DNA from: Escherichia coli
GTDB lineage: Bacteria; Pseudomonadota; Gammaproteobacteria; Enterobacterales; Enterobacteriaceae
DNA length: 64,000 nt
Assembly: GCF_011045215.1 (NCBI RefSeq)
Contig: NZ_CP049201.1
Reading direction: 5' to 3' (one strand)
Shown here: in pieces, positions 9,248-63,555 of the stretch
How positions within the stretch are numbered: the first letter of the stretch is position 1
Layout of the letters: every line of letters begins with the position of its first letter
Position numbers and translations under genes: made by a program
The notes under the pieces: generated by a model
Seen by the model: the letters and a program-made list of their open reading frames with translations, nothing else
Told to the model about the DNA's origin: nothing
The model's database searches: none

Positions 9248-9275
9248 ATGCTCTGTATAAGGATTATCCAATTCT

Positions 9276-9312
9276 AAAAAAAAGCCCGGACGACTGTTCG
9301 GGCTTGTCTTTT
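9276..9312. terminator. Bidirectional rho-independent terminator shared by ydbK (+) and micC (-)
   Basis: A8 run, hairpin GCCCGG-ACGACTGT-TCGGGC, then T-rich tract; read directly. Confidence 0.8.
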
Positions 9313-9385
9313 TATATGTTGGAAAATCAGTGGCAATGCAATGGCCCAACAGAAAATAAAATCTGTGACAATAAAGGCATATAAC
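9277..9385 (-). ncRNA. micC: MicC small regulatory RNA (Hfq-dependent, represses ompC)
   Basis: Minus strand reads GTTATATGCCTTTATTGTCACAGATTTTATTTTCTGTTGGGCC...CCGGGCTTTTTTT, matching the known MicC sequence; lies between ydbK and ompN as in K-12. Confidence 0.9.
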
Positions 9386-9612
9386 CCGCGCAGAATAACG
9401 TATAGAAAATTAAAAGTATAATTTTTATTTTGTATGTATTATCTTCGATACATTCACCAGACTTATTATCATTTCAGAGGAATTATTTGATTAAGGTTTT
9501 ACTTAAGGCGTAACAAATGATATTTATCGGCTAACTGAACTTCTCCTTTAGGATGTTTTCACTCCCCGAAATGGGGATCAAAGGCAAATAAAATAACTAA
9601 AGGATTTATTCA

Positions 9613-43277: not shown

Positions 43278-43349
<72 letters not shown>

Positions 43350-43352
43350 ATA

Positions 43353-43428
<76 letters not shown>

Positions 43429-44974: not shown

Positions 44975-45585
44975 TACGCAAACTCCAGCAGCTGCGCGGC
45001 CACATTTTCGACTTGTTCCGGAGAGGAAAATTTACGGAACAGGATCCAGTTCCACAGCACATTCAGTACAGATTTATAAACCTGCTGAAACTCGGTTTCG
45101 TCCATATTCGCAAACGCGATTGATTTCGCCCTGCGCCCACGGCTACCATCCGGATAAAAATGCTCGGTGTAAAATCCGGCCTGAATGATTACCCACTCGC
45201 GGAAAGCGTCAAATGACTTAAGCAATGCCGTATCCCGGGTTCTGCGTGTCGCAACTGTATTCAGATATTGCTCTGCGGCTTCGCTCAGAGCTGGCGTATG
45301 TTCCCGGCCTACTGATTCACACAGGTAATCAACGAATCCTGATACCATTTCTCGTTCTCGAGGTGTGATCGCCCCACCGATCGGAGTCCAGTAATCGAAT
45401 CCCAGTTGCAGGAGTTTGAAAAAACGCTTGTGGAATGCGTAGTTACGCACACGCTTAAAGTCTGCGTGTATCCACTCACCTATTTTGATTTGATACAGAA
45501 AATCGCAACTCTCCGGCGTCGCCGGGAGAAGTAATCCGGAAGAGGTTTGTTTGACCAGTTGTATATGCGCCATTGCTTTCTCCAA
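44974..45585 (-). CDS. Hypothetical nin-region protein
   Basis: 203-aa ORF, stop/start overlap with the ybcO-like gene. Confidence 0.45.
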   Translation of the reverse strand: MEKAMAHIQLVKQTSSGLLLPATPESCDFLYQIKIGEWIHADFKRVRNYAFHKRFFKLLQLGFDYWTPIGGAITPREREMVSGFVDYLCESVGREHTPALSEAAEQYLNTVATRRTRDTALLKSFDAFREWVIIQAGFYTEHFYPDGSRGRRAKSIAFANMDETEFQQVYKSVLNVLWNWILFRKFSSPEQVENVAAQLLEFA

Positions 45586-45632
45586 TAGCGCTGTAGGTTG
45601 CCAGGTGTTCAGGCTGGCTTACGAATTATAAC

Positions 45633-45875
45633 TCATTCCCAAACTACCTTGAAACCGAGCCTTTCCAGGTATTCAATGAATGCCTCGATAGATAAAATTA
45701 CATGATCATCAGGAATTAACGTTGCGTAGATAACTTCCCCATTCTCAACGCGCACAGCATAGAGGCCATTTTCACTAAAAATTTCACGCAATTCTTCGAT
45801 TTTCATCAGCAGAATCCTTCTGGATAAATAACTTTCCCCTGTTTGGGGGCCATCCCTCTTCTCCCTGCGCGCCAA
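45633..45875 (-). CDS. Hypothetical small protein
   Basis: 80-aa track ORF (internal start MKIEELREIF... possible). Confidence 0.3.
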   Translation of the reverse strand: MARREKRDGPQTGESYLSRRILLMKIEELREIFSENGLYAVRVENGEVIYATLIPDDHVILSIEAFIEYLERLGFKVVWE

Positions 45876-45965
45876 TCAAGTAATGAGATTCTATTTCCCC
45901 CGTAATTAGCCTCAAGAACAACAAATCACAAAAACACAAAAAGCCTGTTTGATTAAAAATAATCG

Positions 45966-45996
45966 TAACAAAAAACCCGTCGAAGCGGGTTAAGTA
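45966..45996 (-). terminator. Rho-independent terminator downstream of the hok-like gene
   Basis: Minus strand: AACCCGC-UUCGA-CGGGUU followed by UUUUUUGUU. Confidence 0.6.
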
Positions 45997-46059
45997 CGGG
46001 GGCGTTGAAGATGCCTGACACATCAGAGGTGGCGGGAGATTTCTCTCCCGCCAGGTCTC

Positions 46060-46197
46060 TTACTCCTCAGGTTCGTAAGCTGTAAAGACAGCGACCTCCG
46101 TCTGACCGATTCGGATTTGTACCTCACAGAGGTCTTTCCTCGTTACCAGTGTCGTCACTATGACGGTTAAACAGATGACGATCAGGACGATTAACAT
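46060..46197 (-). CDS. Hok/Gef-family type I toxin (HokD/RelF-like)
   Basis: Not in ORF track (<60 aa). Minus strand encodes MLIVLIVICLTVIVTTLVTRKDLCEVQIRIGQTEVAVFTAYEPEE*, closely matching HokD/RelF; in-frame GTG just upstream; 3' palindrome GGCGGGAGA...TCTCCCGCC after the stop. Confidence 0.75.
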   Translation of the reverse strand: MLIVLIVICLTVIVTTLVTRKDLCEVQIRIGQTEVAVFTAYEPEE

Positions 46198-46283
46198 CAC
46201 CTTTTGCTACTTTATAGCCTGCTATGCCTTTCATGCATTCTTGGCTATACTAACCTTATACCTACAACACGAGAGACGCAGAA

Positions 46284-46454
46284 ATGACCGTTCATGGCAT
46301 ATCAACAGGCAGTATCGTTCACTTACGTGAAAAAGATGGAGAATGGCTCGTAGTGCACATTCTTAATGACGACATTGTATATGTCCTCAAAAATGCAGAT
46401 TCAGGTGAAGAAATAAAAGTCACTCTTCAAGACATCAATACACCCAATAAATAA
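46284..46454 (+). CDS. Hypothetical small protein (56 aa)
   Basis: ATG...TAA ORF MTVHGISTGSIVHLREKDGEWLVVHILNDDIVYVLKNADSGEEIKVTLQDINTPNK; below track cutoff; weak RBS. Confidence 0.3.
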   Translation: MTVHGISTGSIVHLREKDGEWLVVHILNDDIVYVLKNADSGEEIKVTLQDINTPNK

Positions 46455-46654
46455 TCCCTCCACAATCCCACGGGGGGTATTGTTCTTCTTATCATCACAA
46501 CCGCATCACACCACCAATTGCTCATTGCAGACAACACCCCAGCCATGCTACTCCTAAACGGTTTTATAGTGCTATAGCCCCGGATGTCTGTTGTCGTCAA
46601 CAGACATAACAAGCTAAAATAACAACACTCCCCAACAACGAAGGACTTAATACC

Positions 46655-46942
46655 ATGGCTCAGGTCTATTTTGATACTCTGAAATTCGTTGAAACCCTAG
46701 AAGCCGCCGGAATGCCTGCAGCACAAGCTCGCGCCATATCTGCTGCAGTAAAGGATTCTCACGAAGCGGCAGAAGTCGCTACAAAGCGCGACCTGAACGA
46801 TGTTAAAACTGAACTAAAAAATGACATTGCTGCCATTGATGCAAAAATTGATAAACTCACCCTGCAACTGACTGTCAGATTTGGCGGGATGCTCGTCGTT
46901 GCTGTTGGCGCACTGGCAGCCATCATGAAGCTACCTCTTTAA
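46655..46942 (+). CDS. DUF1640-like coiled-coil protein with C-terminal membrane anchor
   Basis: 95-aa ORF followed by terminator CCAGCCC-TAAT-GGGCTGG-TTTTG at 46950-46972. Confidence 0.5.
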   Translation: MAQVYFDTLKFVETLEAAGMPAAQARAISAAVKDSHEAAEVATKRDLNDVKTELKNDIAAIDAKIDKLTLQLTVRFGGMLVVAVGALAAIMKLPL

Positions 46943-47050
46943 AAAACCAGCCCTAATGGGCTGGCTTTTGTTATCCCCAGCAGAAAATCGAATACACCAC
47001 CAGCGCCACCGCCATCGCAATTCCTGCCGTTGTGAATGCTTCAGGCCAGG

Positions 47051-47713: not shown

Positions 47714-48052
47714 TTATGCCTGAACCTTATTTCTCATCCATACACAAACCGGGCCGTCTTCCGTGTCATGAATGGAGCCAATAAACCACCCATCACCCTC
47801 TGGTCGTTCCGGCTCCCATGCGGAAATATCAGGACCATCCGCATCCGGATTAAAATCATCTTCATCCATTGCGCGAATGGTCCACTGAAGATTATTCGCC
47901 TTCATCCAGGCATTAAATTCTTCCGTCGAAATATACTCCCGGCCATCACAAAATTTTTCATATTCAGGATGTATCCAGCAGCCATATGCATCACGTTCTA
48001 CCGGCATTTCTTTGATTTCGTTCATAACATTAACTCCATTAAAATAATGCAA
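47714..48052 (-). CDS. Hypothetical acidic protein
   Basis: 112-aa ORF. Confidence 0.4.
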   Translation of the reverse strand: MHYFNGVNVMNEIKEMPVERDAYGCWIHPEYEKFCDGREYISTEEFNAWMKANNLQWTIRAMDEDDFNPDADGPDISAWEPERPEGDGWFIGSIHDTEDGPVCVWMRNKVQA

Positions 48053-48221
48053 AACAAATTAACCACACCACTACAACCGATGCTATTAACACCCTGATTG
48101 CAAACAGTGGACTGATATGTCGAAAAGGATTTTCCCAGATAATAAAAGCCGCTGCCAGAAATGCACTGATCAGGAAAACAATAACAAACAGCTCAATTTT
48201 GATTATCCAGAACATATTCAC
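48039..48221 (-). CDS. Small membrane protein
   Basis: 60-aa hydrophobic ORF overlapping neighbours. Confidence 0.3.
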   Translation of the reverse strand: MNMFWIIKIELFVIVFLISAFLAAAFIIWENPFRHISPLFAIRVLIASVVVVWLICFALF

Positions 48222-48508
48222 TGCATCGCCTTCTGTAAAATAACCGCATGCCCCAGCTTCTCCGCCAGTGCCAGTTCTGCCCTAGCACCTGCCGACCGCT
48301 GCCAGTCTTTCAGCATGTAAATCGCATCCACGCAGCGAATCATTGCCATGCAAATATCCATGTAGTGCGGCTGCGTCAGTCCGTCCGGAAGTACTGCCGG
48401 ATTTAAGACTGTGTGCCCATCCCGTTTCAGTTCCTCTTCCGCCTTGTGGAACGCCTCACGGTTGAAATTTTCATAGCCCGTCATTGGACCGGCGATATAA
48501 ACCCTCAC
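48218..48508 (-). CDS. Nucleoside 2-deoxyribosyltransferase-like protein (DUF4406-type)
   Basis: 96 aa beginning [27 protein letters not shown]... (Rossmann-like YIAGPMTG). Confidence 0.5.
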   Translation of the reverse strand: MRVYIAGPMTGYENFNREAFHKAEEELKRDGHTVLNPAVLPDGLTQPHYMDICMAMIRCVDAIYMLKDWQRSAGARAELALAEKLGHAVILQKAMQ

Positions 48509-48909
48509 TCCAGAACCCTCCTGTTGAAATAAACGTAGTTATTCACTGTGCGCAACGGCATTCCGAATTTTCTGGCAATTTCTCTCCTGGACACGCCACG
48601 CTGATGCAACTGTCGCACCAGCTCAATATCGCTCTGCGGATATTTTGTTGACTGGTGATAATCACCACGCAACATCATGCCGATACCCAGTTCCCGTGCT
48701 TTCGCCCTGACCGCCGGCTCACTACGACCAATCAGACTGCCGATGCTGTCGACTGTCATCGTTCCCGCACACTGCCGGAGCACCATGATTTCAGCCCTGC
48801 ACCACTTCTTCCAGCCACTCACCGCTACCGTTCTCCGGTGGCGATAATCTGTCTGACAATATCCTTGTGCCTGTACAGTTCCCGCAGCGCCGCGCAGACT
48901 CGCTCCCAC
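48505..48909 (-). CDS. Hypothetical HTH DNA-binding protein
   Basis: C-terminal HTH-like segment ([22 protein letters not shown]); true start probably internal. Confidence 0.4.
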
Positions 48910-49571
48910 TTCCGGACATGATTTTTCGCCCGACGCAGTTCGCGGTTTGCCATATGCAGTGATGGTAAAACCAGGTCATCAGCTCGCGTTTCAGTAAACG
49001 ATGGCAGCGAATGCACAATGTCCGCCACAGTTTCTGTTTTAATATCTTCCTGTGTTGCAGCCTCCTGTACTGGTAACGCAACACATGCAGGTTGAGGAAA
49101 GGCTTTACCATCAGTTTCCGCTACCGATGCAGCTTTCGGCTCTGCTGGTAAATTATCGCCCGGCATGCAGTAACGAAATTTACCGTTCTGATTAACGCGA
49201 ATCAGACGACCTTTACTGATTGCCATTGCCAGCGTTGAAGCCACTTTGCGTGATGTGGTGCCGAAAAACGTAGCCAGTTCATCCGCCGTTTGTGGGCCAC
49301 GTTGTTCAATCGTCGCAGTTAAATCGCACTCCGAAATTTTCGCGACTGTTGCCGTGGCGGTTTCTTCCGGCAGTTCTGCCTGCTCTGGCTGTTCCTGCTG
49401 AACGTTGTTATCAGCCACACGCCAGGTGTATACGCTTTTATCAACGAAACCAGCCTTTTTCAGTTCCCACAGCTCGTTCAGTACCTCTTCACGACTGATA
49501 TCAAGTCGCGCAGCCAGTTCTACCGACGTGGCTTTTCCCATTGCTTTCAGTGCGTCAAAAACAGTCTCCAT
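48825..49571 (-). CDS. Hypothetical replication-region protein
   Basis: Track ORF 48825..49604; ATG at 49571 with GGGAGG upstream; directly downstream of the DnaC-like gene. Confidence 0.45.
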
Positions 49572-49593
49572 TAAAATTTCCTCCCGGTAAAAA

Positions 49594-50340
49594 TCACTTC
49601 GCAATTCCTAGCTGGACGACATTCGGACGCCAGCTCTCCCAGTTAAAATTCACCCATCGCCCGCCGTTCATGGTCATGCGATCCATAATCCTCTCGCCGA
49701 GCAATGTTTTCATGGCCTCATAGTTCAGGTTTGTCAGCATCCCCACGCTGCGCATCGACGCTGTCCGGCGATCAACAATCTGGTGCAGCACCACCAGCTC
49801 GTTTTTTGTCTCGCGCTGAATGCCAATTTCATCAAGAACCAGCAGATCCACTTCGCACAGTTCCCGCAAAAATTTTTCGCCTGATTTCCCGTCGTCATAG
49901 CTGGCGTGTAGAGCACTCATGACATCAGCCACGGTAACCACAATCACTGTCTGGCCATCTTTCAGCAGGCGATTCCCGATTGCCGCCGCCAGATGGTTTT
50001 TTCCGGTACCAGGTTTTCCGCTGAACGCAAAATTTGTACACCCGGTCATCAGTTCATCAGCGATAGATTTCGCCTGGCTCAACGCGTATCGCTGGCCGTC
50101 GTTCTGCACCAGGTAATTCGCAAACGAGCATTTGCGGTGCAACAGCTGGATGCCGGAGCGATTCAGGATTTTTTCCACCCGCAACTGACGATTCTGACGG
50201 TTGATCTCCTCACAACGTTTCTGGCCTTCTACAAGTTGCCACTCGCGCCACTCCGCCACCGTCCTGAATGGCGCGGTTACATGTGACGGGGCCAGTCTGC
50301 GGATACGTTCCAGAACGCCGCCTGTCGCAATATTTTTCAT
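49594..50340 (-). CDS. DnaC-like helicase loader / replication protein (AAA+), Rac YdaV-like
   Basis: 248 aa; Walker [16 protein letters not shown], Walker B LLVLDEIG. Confidence 0.85.
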
Positions 50341-50346
50341 GGTCAG

Positions 50347-51153
50347 TTACCCCCTGAAGCCTGGCGGGATCGCACTGTCCGGCAACGAGACGGTGTTAAC
50401 CTGTCGAGGCAGCATCTCCGGTCGAACGCCTTTCGGTGCGAACAAACCCTGGTATTCATTGGCGATGCTGTGTCGAATCACCTGCTCAGGGGTAAAACCC
50501 TGCTGGCGGAATTTTTCCAGTTCCCGTATCGCCCCGTTAGCGCCCTGCTCTGTTCGAATCGGTTTTCGCAATGCCTGGCGAAATTCAACCCACTCACGCC
50601 AAAGCGAGACAGAAATCCAGTTCGGCAAAGCAATATCCAGAGGGTCAAACTTTTTGACACCTCGATTCCCCCGGGGGGGATTTAGGGGGGGATCTGTTTT
50701 TAGATCTTTATCTGTATCTTTATTAGTTGCCTTTGTGTTGGCATCATGTTCAAACACTGCTCCAACTTCTGTTTGAACACCTGTTAAATTTCTCTCTTGT
50801 TTTGTTTGAACATCTGCTTCCTTTCTGCTTCTTCTGGCCTGAACAGATGCTTTTCCGGCGGCTGATTTTTTGGTTAATTTTTCCCTGACTGAAGCCAGAT
50901 CTTCCTCAATCCGAAGATGCACCCATTCGTCGCCGTTATCGCAAAAAAACTCCCGCAAGGATGGTTCAACATCAGCCCATCGCTCGTTAGTCAGACGAGC
51001 AATTTTTGCCAGCCTGTTTTTGGGTATTGGCTTTCCTGTTTGCCAGTAATTGAACATCAGCAACAAATACGCACCGTGCTCCTCTGCTGACAAATGCATG
51101 GTGTCAGCCAAGTAATCAGCTATGTACAGTTGCATATATGGTAATGCGGCCAT
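50347..51153 (-). CDS. Replication initiation protein (DUF1376 / Rac YdaU-like)
   Basis: Track ORF starts at TTG 51207; ATG at 51153 with GAGG upstream (MAALPYMQLYIADYL...). Confidence 0.6.
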   Translation of the reverse strand: MAALPYMQLYIADYLADTMHLSAEEHGAYLLLMFNYWQTGKPIPKNRLAKIARLTNERWADVEPSLREFFCDNGDEWVHLRIEEDLASVREKLTKKSAAGKASVQARRSRKEADVQTKQERNLTGVQTEVGAVFEHDANTKATNKDTDKDLKTDPPLNPPRGNRGVKKFDPLDIALPNWISVSLWREWVEFRQALRKPIRTEQGANGAIRELEKFRQQGFTPEQVIRHSIANEYQGLFAPKGVRPEMLPRQVNTVSLPDSAIPPGFRG

Positions 51154-51232
51154 AACTGCCTCATCTGGTGCCGAACCTTCCTCCGGATATAATCTGTGAT
51201 TCCCCAATCAACAGAACCAAAGGAGGTTCGAC

Positions 51233-51484
51233 ATGTCTTTTACATTTGATAAGTCTGCTCCATTCCCCCAAAAATTTTGGGTGGACAGTATTACTGGAAC
51301 CGAGTCAAAAATTTTTAGCACCTCAGGAATGCTCAATCGCGGAGGAGTAAAAATACTTGCCCAGGAATTCCATACACAGGAACTAAATTACGGGGCTTAT
51401 CACAAACTGGAGTTGATAATGGATGCAACCCAAATTGATGAACTGATCGTTGCCCTACAAAAGCTAAAAGAAAAGATGTCATAA
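51233..51484 (+). CDS. Hypothetical protein (83 aa), opposite-strand moron in the replication module
   Basis: ATG preceded by AAGGAGG at 7 nt; stop abuts the stop of a convergent gene. Confidence 0.5.
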   Translation: MSFTFDKSAPFPQKFWVDSITGTESKIFSTSGMLNRGGVKILAQEFHTQELNYGAYHKLELIMDATQIDELIVALQKLKEKMS

Positions 51485-51781
51485 TCACCCCCTAAAAATT
51501 ACGTGGCGCAGCGGTTGAGCTTTGCTGTAGTCGATCTCATCGCCATACTCAATATCAAGAGCTTGTCCCTGCGCCAGTTCCATCCACCGAATGTGATCTG
51601 CGGCTTTTTCTTTATCTTTGATATTGATGAACAACAGCGTTGACGAGGGATACCCGTTAACAAGATGGCGATGCAGAGAGAGTCGTATCGCATACCAGGC
51701 AACATTTCGGGCTATACGCTGAAGCAATGTTTCGGCTTCCAGTGTTTTAAGTCGGTATTTTTTCAGTTCATATTTTTCCAT
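51485..51781 (-). CDS. Hypothetical protein (98 aa), convergent with the 83-aa gene
   Basis: Track ORF starts at GTG 51787; ATG at 51781 with AAGGTG upstream. Confidence 0.45.
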   Translation of the reverse strand: MEKYELKKYRLKTLEAETLLQRIARNVAWYAIRLSLHRHLVNGYPSSTLLFINIKDKEKAADHIRWMELAQGQALDIEYGDEIDYSKAQPLRHVIFRG

Positions 51782-51793
51782 CACCACATCACC

Positions 51794-52216
51794 TTAATGA
51801 ACAACAACAGAATCGCCGGACGAACCGCCGCCGCTGAAATGCGCTTTACGGTAAACGGCCTGGACTGCGTCATCATGCGCATCAATTGCCGTACTCAGTG
51901 CGTCCTGTGCCGCAAGTAATGCCCGTCGTTCCAGGGTATCGAAGATGCTGAGTCGGTGGCGCAGCTCGCGCGGAAGGATTGCCAGAATTGCTGGGATCAG
52001 CTTCTGAATTTTTTCTCTTTGCGTTTTCGTTTCACCTTTCAACCAACGGTGATAGATATTCTGCTGATTGTTCCAGTCCTTGCCTGGTACCAGGGGCAAT
52101 TCGCCGCCCCCCTGGCGCAGATATTCTTCAGTAATTGCATTGGCTACCCATGCCTGCCCTTTTTCGGCTGCCAGGGCTAACAGCACTGATTCGATGTGCT
52201 CATGCCTGATTTTCAT
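51794..52216 (-). CDS. Rac YdaT-like protein (140 aa)
   Basis: 140-aa ORF directly downstream of the Cro-like ydaS homologue, same size and position as Rac ydaT. Confidence 0.5.
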   Translation of the reverse strand: MKIRHEHIESVLLALAAEKGQAWVANAITEEYLRQGGGELPLVPGKDWNNQQNIYHRWLKGETKTQREKIQKLIPAILAILPRELRHRLSIFDTLERRALLAAQDALSTAIDAHDDAVQAVYRKAHFSGGGSSGDSVVVH

Positions 52217-58629: not shown

Positions 58630-58856
58630 GCGCAGCCACAAAGCTCACAGGAGAAAAACCAGTGCGATACACAAAAATTAAACCATGTCCATTTTGTGGT
58701 TGTCCATCAGTAACGGTGAAAGCCATTTCAGGATATTACCGAGCGAAGTGTAACGGATGCGAATCCCGAACCGGTTATGGTGGAAGTGAAAAGGAAGCAC
58801 TCGAAAGATGGAATAAACGAACCACTGGAAATAATAATGGAGGTGTTCATGTATAA
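58620..58856 (+). CDS. Lar-family restriction alleviation protein (RalR-like)
   Basis: 78 aa with zinc-ribbon motif KPCPFCGC...CNGCE typical of Lar. Confidence 0.6.
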
Positions 58857-59037
58857 AATTACCGCCACTATTGAAAAGGAAGGTGGCACTCCTACTAACT
58901 GGACAAGATATTCAAAATCTAAACTAACGAAATCAGAATGCGAAAAAATGCTCTCAGGTAAAAAAGAAGCGGGCGTTTCCAGAGAGCAGAAAGTAAAACT
59001 GATAAATTTTAATTGCGAGAAACTTCAGTCCTGGTGA
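58849..59037 (+). CDS. Hypothetical small protein
   Basis: Track ORF 58777..59037; internal start [10 protein letters not shown]... assumed. Confidence 0.35.
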   Translation: MYKITATIEKEGGTPTNWTRYSKSKLTKSECEKMLSGKKEAGVSREQKVKLINFNCEKLQSW

Positions 59038-63338: not shown

Positions 63339-63366
63339 AAAAAAAAGCCGACTCATCAAAGTCGGC
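63339..63366 (-). terminator. Rho-independent terminator ~190 nt downstream of zntB
   Basis: Minus strand: GCCGAC-UUUGAUGAG-GUCGGC followed by U8. Confidence 0.6.
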
Positions 63367-63555
63367 GTCGTACGAATCAATTGTGCTATGCAGTAATTCA
63401 AAAAAGGAAGTAAGACAATATGGAGCGCAACGCCCATCGCTTGACGTTGCATTCACCTGCAAGAGAGATATTGCCCTGAATGGGTAGAGAGTTTATTGAC
63501 TTCGCTCAAACTTTGCGGCGTTTTTGTATACAGACAGCCGGAAAAATTGCTTTTG

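Follow-up and report, generated by a model that had tools for sequence, protein, structure and literature searches.

Genes of the Hok family occur in large numbers and are enriched in the prophages of E. coli; a hok-like reading frame in one such prophage raises the question of whether it belongs to a working type I toxin-antitoxin (TA) system or is what remains of one. The frame lies on the minus strand of a 64,000-nt stretch of DNA (hereafter the window; position 1 is its first nucleotide), a piece of the E. coli chromosome that covers the Rac prophage region. A sequence-only reading of the window had proposed a HokD/RelF-like toxin gene, treated as intact, and had suggested that a Sok-like antisense RNA and a mok-like leader frame may be encoded around 46200-46280. 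In our analysis, the toxin homology and the 3′ features of the mRNA stand, while the antitoxin RNA and the intactness of the gene do not. The locus is most likely dead as a TA system: the remnant of a hokD-type gene, without Sok and in decay, within the nin region of a Rac-site lambdoid prophage. Coordinates of the features are collected in Table 1.

Table 1. Features of the hok remnant, the DNA around it, and the prophage that carries it.
Feature	Position	Strand	Remarks
MicC	9268-9388	−	Rfam, above gathering score
Two phage tRNA genes	43278-43428	−	Thr and Gly in strain C5 annotation; between DUF1133 gene and holin genes
rem-like ORF downstream of hok	45633-45875	−	PHROG 340, E = 1.3e-18
Intrinsic terminator	45966..45991	−	Stem 45991-45974, then TTTTTT
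fbi-like element	45997..46013	−	CATCTTCAACGCCCCCG; two substitutions relative to intact CCTCAACGCACCC; without partner
Post-stop hairpin	46031..46052	−	9-bp G+C stem GGCGGGAGA-GAAA-TCTCCCGCC, GAAA loop; conserved
45-codon ORF and stop	46060..46197	−	HokD residues 7-51; Pfam, BLASTP, RefSeq annotation
UACG at Tyr41 codon	46074..46077	−	TadA A-to-I editing motif, retained in window
Vestigial mok frame, 36 codons	46124..46234	−	80% identical to Mok residues 15-49 of 68
Damaged ancestral start region	46198..46223	−	hokD-homologous; alignment, translation, BLAST start points, 84-nt search
Unrelated DNA, divergent spacer before 56-aa ORF	46224..46283		Occupies place of Shine-Dalgarno, mok start, Sok target, sok promoter and gene
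56-aa ORF (MTVHGISTGS...)	46284-46454	+	Divergent from hok remnant
95-aa DUF1640-type protein	46655-46942	+	PHROG 17872, E = 2.8e-19; C-terminal hydrophobic segment
RalA (antitoxin RNA of RalR type I system)	58855-59033	−	Rfam, above gathering score
FnrS	63343-63460	−	Rfam, above gathering score

The 45-aa peptide is encoded by 46197..46063, followed by a TAA stop codon (46062-46060); the ORF list also contains a GTG-started version of the same ORF (46060..46200, 46 aa). The peptide matches Pfam HOK_GEF (PF01848) with E = 2.9e-21 and 75.2 bits over model positions 2-42 of 42, and matches PHROG 251 'MokW-like host killing' with E = 1.6e-24. BLASTP against K-12 HokD gives 41/45 identical residues (91%, E = 2e-28), covering HokD residues 7-51 only, and bears out the proposed kinship with HokD/RelF. 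A tblastn search with HokD detects a single hok-like copy within the 64-kb window, and a search with R1 Hok gives 50% identity across 38 residues. The peptide has one hydrophobic helix, at its N-terminus, and after it a polar C-terminal part that contains the conserved Cys (Cys24, aligned to HokD Cys30). In particular, peptide residues 1-19 have a mean Kyte-Doolittle value of 2.94, equal to that of HokD residues 7-25. The retained UACG motif corresponds to a site at which TadA A-to-I editing, converting Tyr to Cys, has been reported for hokD and related mRNAs (PMC12214031; bioRxiv 10.1101/2025.08.07.668861). The peptide could thus be toxic, were it translated, given that the ORF is open and has kept nearly all of the Hok domain as well as its helix, conserved Cys, and editable Tyr codon.

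Exactly the same ORF is annotated by PGAP/RefSeq in strain C5 as 'Hok/Gef family protein' (WP_072278258.1), and the identical peptide is present, under Hok names, on 332 contigs of a large protein collection, among which no disrupted version was seen; the lineage is very young (~1% divergence), so these 332 intact contigs say little for or against function. The score against the Hok subfamily profile NCBIfam NF007279 is 43.9 bits, below the curated whole-protein cut-off of 73, and covers profile positions 11-49 of 52. Relative to intact loci, the 45-codon ORF carries 4 non-synonymous and 3 synonymous differences, which are too few to separate neutral drift from constraint.

The sequence following the ORF is a hok-type 3′ UTR containing a post-stop hairpin, an fbi-like element, and a terminator; the GC-rich palindrome after the stop codon and the hok-like terminator that had been read from the sequence are thus both confirmed. 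Two pairs of the hairpin stem show compensatory changes among hok loci (G-C, G-T, and A-T states), one compensatory A-T pair being specific to the window's lineage. For the 97-nt 3′ region, the predicted folding energy is −37.2 kcal/mol (z = −4.07 relative to shuffles); homology to hokD loci extends through the terminator to about 45900. An Rfam isrK match on the 3′ UTR (45970-46051, minus strand) was rejected as a generic hairpin-plus-terminator likeness: it scores 25 bits in the window and 26-33 bits on intact hok loci, relative to a gathering score of 50, and true isrK (79 bits), in Salmonella Gifsy-1, is located just downstream of an antiterminator Q gene, overlapping C4-type/a1b1 immunity RNAs, and hence not at a hok-equivalent position.

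The strong structure of this region, its compensatory G-C/A-T changes, including the one in the window, and the continuation of homology through the terminator are consistent with an RNA 3′ end that would have been retained for a function of its own, the hairpin and terminator acting to stop transcription, or as a stabiliser, in the prophage nin region upstream of the rem-like gene, and the coding part being carried passively. We consider this very unlikely. Descent from a hok mRNA explains the same structures, the lineage is too young to reveal selection, and the sub-threshold isrK likeness is not homology.

The 5′ partner of the 3′ UTR is missing. At an intact locus, both the full-length minimum-free-energy fold and a duplex search show the fbi element CCTCAACGCACCC pairing with the 5′-terminal tac element (GGGUGCUUGAGG...) at about −37 kcal/mol. 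The best upstream partner for the window's fbi-like element pairs at −23.2 kcal/mol, relative to −22.5 ± 2.9 kcal/mol for shuffled sequence, and the window locus accordingly lacks 5′ tac/ucb elements that would pair with fbi for fold-back inhibition.

The start of the gene is damaged. We aligned the window with five comparison loci: K-12 hokD, the intact hokD of strain R1, mok/hok of Rac 442/2, mEp460, and Stx2 phage I. The start region reads AAGGAGAAGCAGGCTATGAAGCAGCAAAAGGCGATG in the five comparison loci and AAGGCATAGCAGGCTATAAAGTAGCAAAAGGTGATG in the window. Specifically, on the minus strand the ancestral hok ATG is changed to ATA (46215-46213), codon 3 is changed from CAG to TAG (46209-46207), and codon 6 is changed from GCG to GTG (46200-46198), such that in-frame translation gives I-K-stop-Q-K-V-M-L-I-V here, as compared to M-K-Q-Q-K-A-M-L-I-A in HokD. 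A cloning primer for hokW, ACC-ATGAAGCAGCAAAAGGCGATG (PMC8621323), confirms where that gene starts. Because the ATG is lost and codon 3 is TAG, the ORF begins at former Met7. The conserved CAAGGAGAAGCAGGCTATGAAGCAGCAAAAGGCGATG of the aligned hok loci is AAAGGCATAGCAGGCTATAAAGTAGCAAAAGGTGATG in the window, and the Shine-Dalgarno GGAG is lost. The three substitutions in the 26 nt of the start region are not significantly enriched relative to about 14 in 229 nt.

Predicted pairing with the anti-Shine-Dalgarno sequence is −8.5 kcal/mol at 8-nt spacing for intact hokD and −7.4 kcal/mol for K-12 hokD. In the window, it is −3.9 kcal/mol at 0-nt spacing before ATG 46197 and −2.0 kcal/mol before GTG 46200. 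By these predictions, the window ORF is without a usable, properly spaced ribosome-binding site. The locus thus has neither the Shine-Dalgarno nor the start codon nor the ~50-aa peptide of an intact hok gene, and with the third codon lost as well, the gene cannot be treated as intact, as the sequence-only reading had done. Weak initiation at ATG 46197, which AAGGTG directly abuts, may conceivably occur; it is relevant because Hok toxins are lethal at very low expression.

The locus could encode a working, N-terminally shortened Hok made from ATG 46197, perhaps inefficiently or aided by ribosomes translating the mok frame. Transcription would occur only when the early-right operon of the prophage fires, and the peptide would then help lysis or phage release as HokW does; since hok would be silent in the lysogen, an antitoxin would be unnecessary. 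This is unlikely. The open ORF, the nearly complete Pfam domain, and the helix with hydrophobicity identical to that of HokD are consistent with it, as are the PGAP label and the 332 contigs with the exact sequence. Against it stand the translation signals: the only Shine-Dalgarno pairing available is weaker than that of an intact locus and has no spacing, the ancestral start codon is replaced and followed by a nonsense codon at position 3, and the two N-terminal lysines preceding the helix are lost. The NCBIfam Hok score below cut-off also argues against it.

Homology to every other hokD/hokW locus ends at 46223/46224, 8 nt 5′ of the ancestral start codon: in megablast searches of 5426 complete E. 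coli genomes and blastn searches of 50,697 phage records, all matches, except those to 8 near-identical genomes, start at query position 238, which corresponds to window position 46223. Across the 245 nt upstream, resemblance to intact leaders does not exceed that of shuffled sequence, apart from the terminal AGCAGGCT. Permissive gapped alignment of the proximal 67 nt to four leaders likewise gave nothing better than chance: for three leaders, 82-215 of 2000 shuffles reached the same score or more, and for the fourth 1709 of 2000 did. Two short leader matches just upstream of the junction (GAAAGGCA and TGTAGGT...TAGCC) were rejected as residual leader homology, as the local alignments did not exceed shuffles; aligning them also takes gaps, namely an insertion of 12 nt and a deletion of 5 nt. 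The hok promoter, tac/ucb, the mok start, the Sok target, the sok promoter and gene, and the hok Shine-Dalgarno are all absent 5′ of the junction.

In their place is an upstream module (46224-46960) comprising a plus-strand gene for a DUF1640-type protein and the 56-aa ORF. The DUF1640 gene reads against the prophage early operon, and the interposition of a plus-strand gene, with convergent transcription, between hok and the next upstream minus-strand gene is a further point against expression of a working shortened Hok. The 56-aa ORF has no NCBIfam match, no significant PHROG match, and no phage tblastn match. It is not annotated by PGAP in strain C5 and is called 'hypothetical protein' in other pipelines; its exact sequence is found on 82 contigs, together with close variants, and only shallow variants exist. 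A weak terminator-like site follows it at 46465-46478.

The sequence-only reading's mok-like leader frame is present in part. The retained mok-frame ORF (46234..46124) matches PHROG 37205 and, in comparison with the 68-aa Mok annotated in phage Rac 442/2, covers residues 15-49 only. Upstream, TAG at 46252-46250 closes the frame and the Mok start region is absent; at its other end the frame stops at a premature TGA (46126-46124) that results from a C-to-T change synonymous in hok (TGC to TGT). ATG 46234 has no Shine-Dalgarno (−0.7 kcal/mol). The fragment amounts to just that part of mok which overlaps retained hok DNA, and the window has no mok frame with its own upstream translation start that overlaps hok. 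Hok synthesis requires Mok translation as far as the hok Shine-Dalgarno (PMC9841398). A mok-frame ORF lacking both a Shine-Dalgarno and the Mok start also counts against mok-frame ribosomes aiding initiation of a shortened Hok.

The Sok-like antisense RNA proposed for the same interval was not recovered. The Rfam sok model RF01794, which has 157 positions and ends at the hok ATG, gave no match in window 45500-46900 even at E <= 1; as a positive control, it scored 111-116 bits on four intact hokD/hokW-type loci, directly upstream of the hok ATG. The experimentally defined sokW comprises a 71-nt body complementary to the hokW 5′ UTR, with promoter and body located upstream of the Shine-Dalgarno (PMC8621323); from the primers in that work, we infer that the sokW −10 element is the complement of TAGGTTAG and the −35 element is the complement of AGGCAA. 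Since the sokW promoter and body are upstream of the position of the junction, they are missing from the window.

No sigma-70-like promoter met our criteria, either on the minus strand just upstream or on the plus strand in a position suited to a Sok-like RNA. Two weak candidates from a relaxed scan were not taken as functional evidence: TTGACG-18-TATAGC on the minus strand (46600-46571), and, on the plus strand, TTAACA (46191-46196) and TATAGC (46213-46218) separated by 16 nt, with 9/12 matches. The plus-strand −10 element is complementary to the dead hok start codon, such that the change from ATG to ATA also converts CATAGC to TATAGC. A transcript from this site would enter the 56-aa ORF and would not be antisense to the hok coding sequence; the G-to-A change could improve a −10 element driving that ORF.

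A complete hok/sok-like type I TA system, with a novel Sok-like RNA and a mok-like leader at about 46200-46280, is therefore hard to credit, and we regard it as extremely unlikely. It could appeal to the mok-frame ORF starting at 46234, to the weak plus-strand promoter-like pair (46191-46218), and to the short leader matches just upstream of the junction. However, the Rfam search is empty where intact loci score above 110 bits, the leader similarity is not above shuffles, and the sequences to which the sokW promoter and body map are absent. Moreover, the plus-strand promoter-like site would start transcription near 46225, reading away from hok, and the first plus-strand terminator-like site is the one at 46465-46478, so no compact antisense small RNA is delimited. 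The fbi element without a tac partner is also at odds with a complete system. As a TA system, the window locus lacks every 5′ element tested: Sok, mok initiation, tac/ucb, and the Shine-Dalgarno and start codon.

The surroundings of the gene are those of a prophage. RalA, FnrS, and MicC are all present, indicating that the window takes in the whole length of a lambdoid prophage at the Rac site; RalA is a second type I TA antitoxin in the window and is apparently intact. The region around the hok ORF shares 99.8% identity with a prophage of E. coli strain C5, in whose RefSeq annotation the minus-strand early-right/nin order is ydaS/ydaT, replication genes, small hypothetical genes, and the hok ORF, followed by a rem-like fragment, DUF1367, DUF1364, DUF1133, tRNAs, holins, and endolysin. 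The DUF1133 gene holds the place that an antiterminator Q-family gene has in K-12 Qin and strain R1. The rem-like gene is, per PGAP, a 78-nt incomplete pseudogene piece in C5, and an intact 86-aa gene lies at the same place in RM11911. Neither relB nor relE is found in the window ORF list or in the collinear C5 RefSeq annotation, in agreement with the earlier statement that relBE is not adjacent. In strain C5, ISEc12 (IS21 family) and an element of the IS3 family are inserted ~2 kb upstream of hok; the position of RalA differs by ~4.3 kb between C5 and the window, which suggests that these two insertions are absent from the window's strain (window about 48000-52000).

The upstream module is present in 8 of the 5426 complete E. 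coli genomes, mostly bovine isolates, and is always joined to the ATA/TAG hok. The 84-nt 5′ part of hok carrying ATA and TAG is found at 100% identity in only those 8 genomes; the next-best match, at 95.2%, is intact hokD. The closest intact relatives are 94.4% identical over 324 nt, including shared sequence past the terminator, and possess the full sok and leader, which implies that the window arrangement would have arisen when the 5′ part of an intact hok/sok locus was replaced. The lineage comprises two sublineages with ~16 differences across 1.1 kb, and this ~1% divergence is too little to test selection.

K-12 Qin hokD (relF) is the nearest parallel. Its product is the 41/45-identical relative of the peptide, and its DNA is 90-94% identical from just before the start codon to the terminator. 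Both genes are located in lambdoid prophages upstream of a rem-like gene, and both lack the hok leader, mok start, and sok owing to a rearrangement just 5′ of the gene. The window locus is thus a HokD-type coding sequence that has lost its sok/mok leader by rearrangement, as in truncated loci of the hokD/relF type. Unlike the window, K-12 hokD keeps its Shine-Dalgarno (AGGAG), ATG, and all 51 codons, and sits behind relBE. In the window, the break is ~7 nt nearer to the gene, the Shine-Dalgarno is removed, the start is ATA, codon 3 is TAG, and the upstream neighbour is an unrelated divergent module in place of relBE, so that hok is not the third gene of a relBE operon. K-12 HokD is Sok-less and co-transcribed with upstream genes. 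K-12 hokD is regarded as inactivated by rearrangement and as lacking canonical TA components (PMC12214031; PMC7232551).

The homologous coding sequence and 3′ UTR are found, in the same prophage setting, in hokW-sokW of the Stx2 prophage Sp5 (O157:H7 Sakai) and, as equivalents of hokW-sokW, in the intact prophage loci of strain R1, phage mEp460, and Rac 442/2. Unlike the window, these intact loci have a full 170-nt leader (Rfam sok 111-116 bits), tac/fbi pairing, a 68-codon mok, and a strong Shine-Dalgarno. hokW-sokW has been shown experimentally to comprise a toxin and a 71-nt antisense antitoxin, and HokW of Sp5 facilitates phage release (PMC8621323). This role of HokW, the Sok-less state of K-12 HokD, and the placement of hok on the sense strand of the nin region, between replication genes and the Q-like gene, are the points from comparison that favour a working shortened Hok. 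A related proposal is that the 45-aa Hok would still be made and toxic as a Sok-independent, leader-less Hok expressed only on induction, for lysis timing or abortive infection. Here the losses of the Shine-Dalgarno, start codon, and codon 3 would attenuate translation enough for the absence of the antitoxin to be tolerated. We consider such deployment distinctly unlikely.

The plasmid R1 hok/sok (parB) locus belongs to the same Pfam family and has the same mRNA 3′-end architecture of hairpin, fbi, and terminator. It differs in having the complete circuit of Sok, mok, tac, ucb, dcb, and fbi, and in mediating post-segregational killing. Among the loss-of-function suppressors of Sok-less R1 hok are changes at positions 2 and 3 of the hok start codon, premature stops, and mutations of the mok start (PMC9841398). 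The window changes, namely a start-codon third-position substitution, an early stop, and loss of mok initiation, fall into these loss-of-function classes. Such decay has counterparts in large censuses of hok genes, in which 10.2% of peptides had no Shine-Dalgarno and 5.3% had neither a Shine-Dalgarno nor a start codon, and from which degenerate coding sequences had been removed (internal stops, 2.6%, and lengths under 40 aa, 5.1%, of unique coding sequences; bioRxiv 10.1101/2025.08.07.668861).

Taken as a decaying remnant, the locus would be the 3′ two-thirds of a prophage-borne hok/sok locus of the hokD/hokW type, left after a rearrangement. The comparisons point to a recombination event, with its junction at 46223/46224, that probably exchanged the upstream part for the module with DUF1640 and the 56-aa ORF. 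The replacement would have taken away the hok promoter, tac/ucb, the mok translation start, the Sok target, sok, and the hok Shine-Dalgarno, leaving as survivors the 45-codon ORF from former Met7, the internal mok-frame fragment, and the hok 3′ UTR. With the antitoxin RNA and mok-coupled translation absent, the locus would not operate as a TA system, and little or no peptide would be expected. Transcription would probably be only passive, within the early-right (nin-region) transcript of the prophage, and the terminator, the one part that would then be likely to have any effect, may still act there. The start-codon and nonsense changes, being of the classes recovered as Sok-less suppressors, would fit selection for silencing after the loss of sok.

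The hok feature is real but ordinary: the ORF is already annotated, and degenerate or Sok-less copies, including K-12 hokD, are well documented. The locus has little importance beyond annotation hygiene, where it is a reminder that neither the label 'Hok/Gef family protein' nor a close match of the peptide amounts to a working type I TA system, the antitoxin, leader, and translation start being missing here. It also provides a natural example of the apparent silencing of a toxin gene after antitoxin loss, in which the classes of mutation match those of laboratory suppressor screens.
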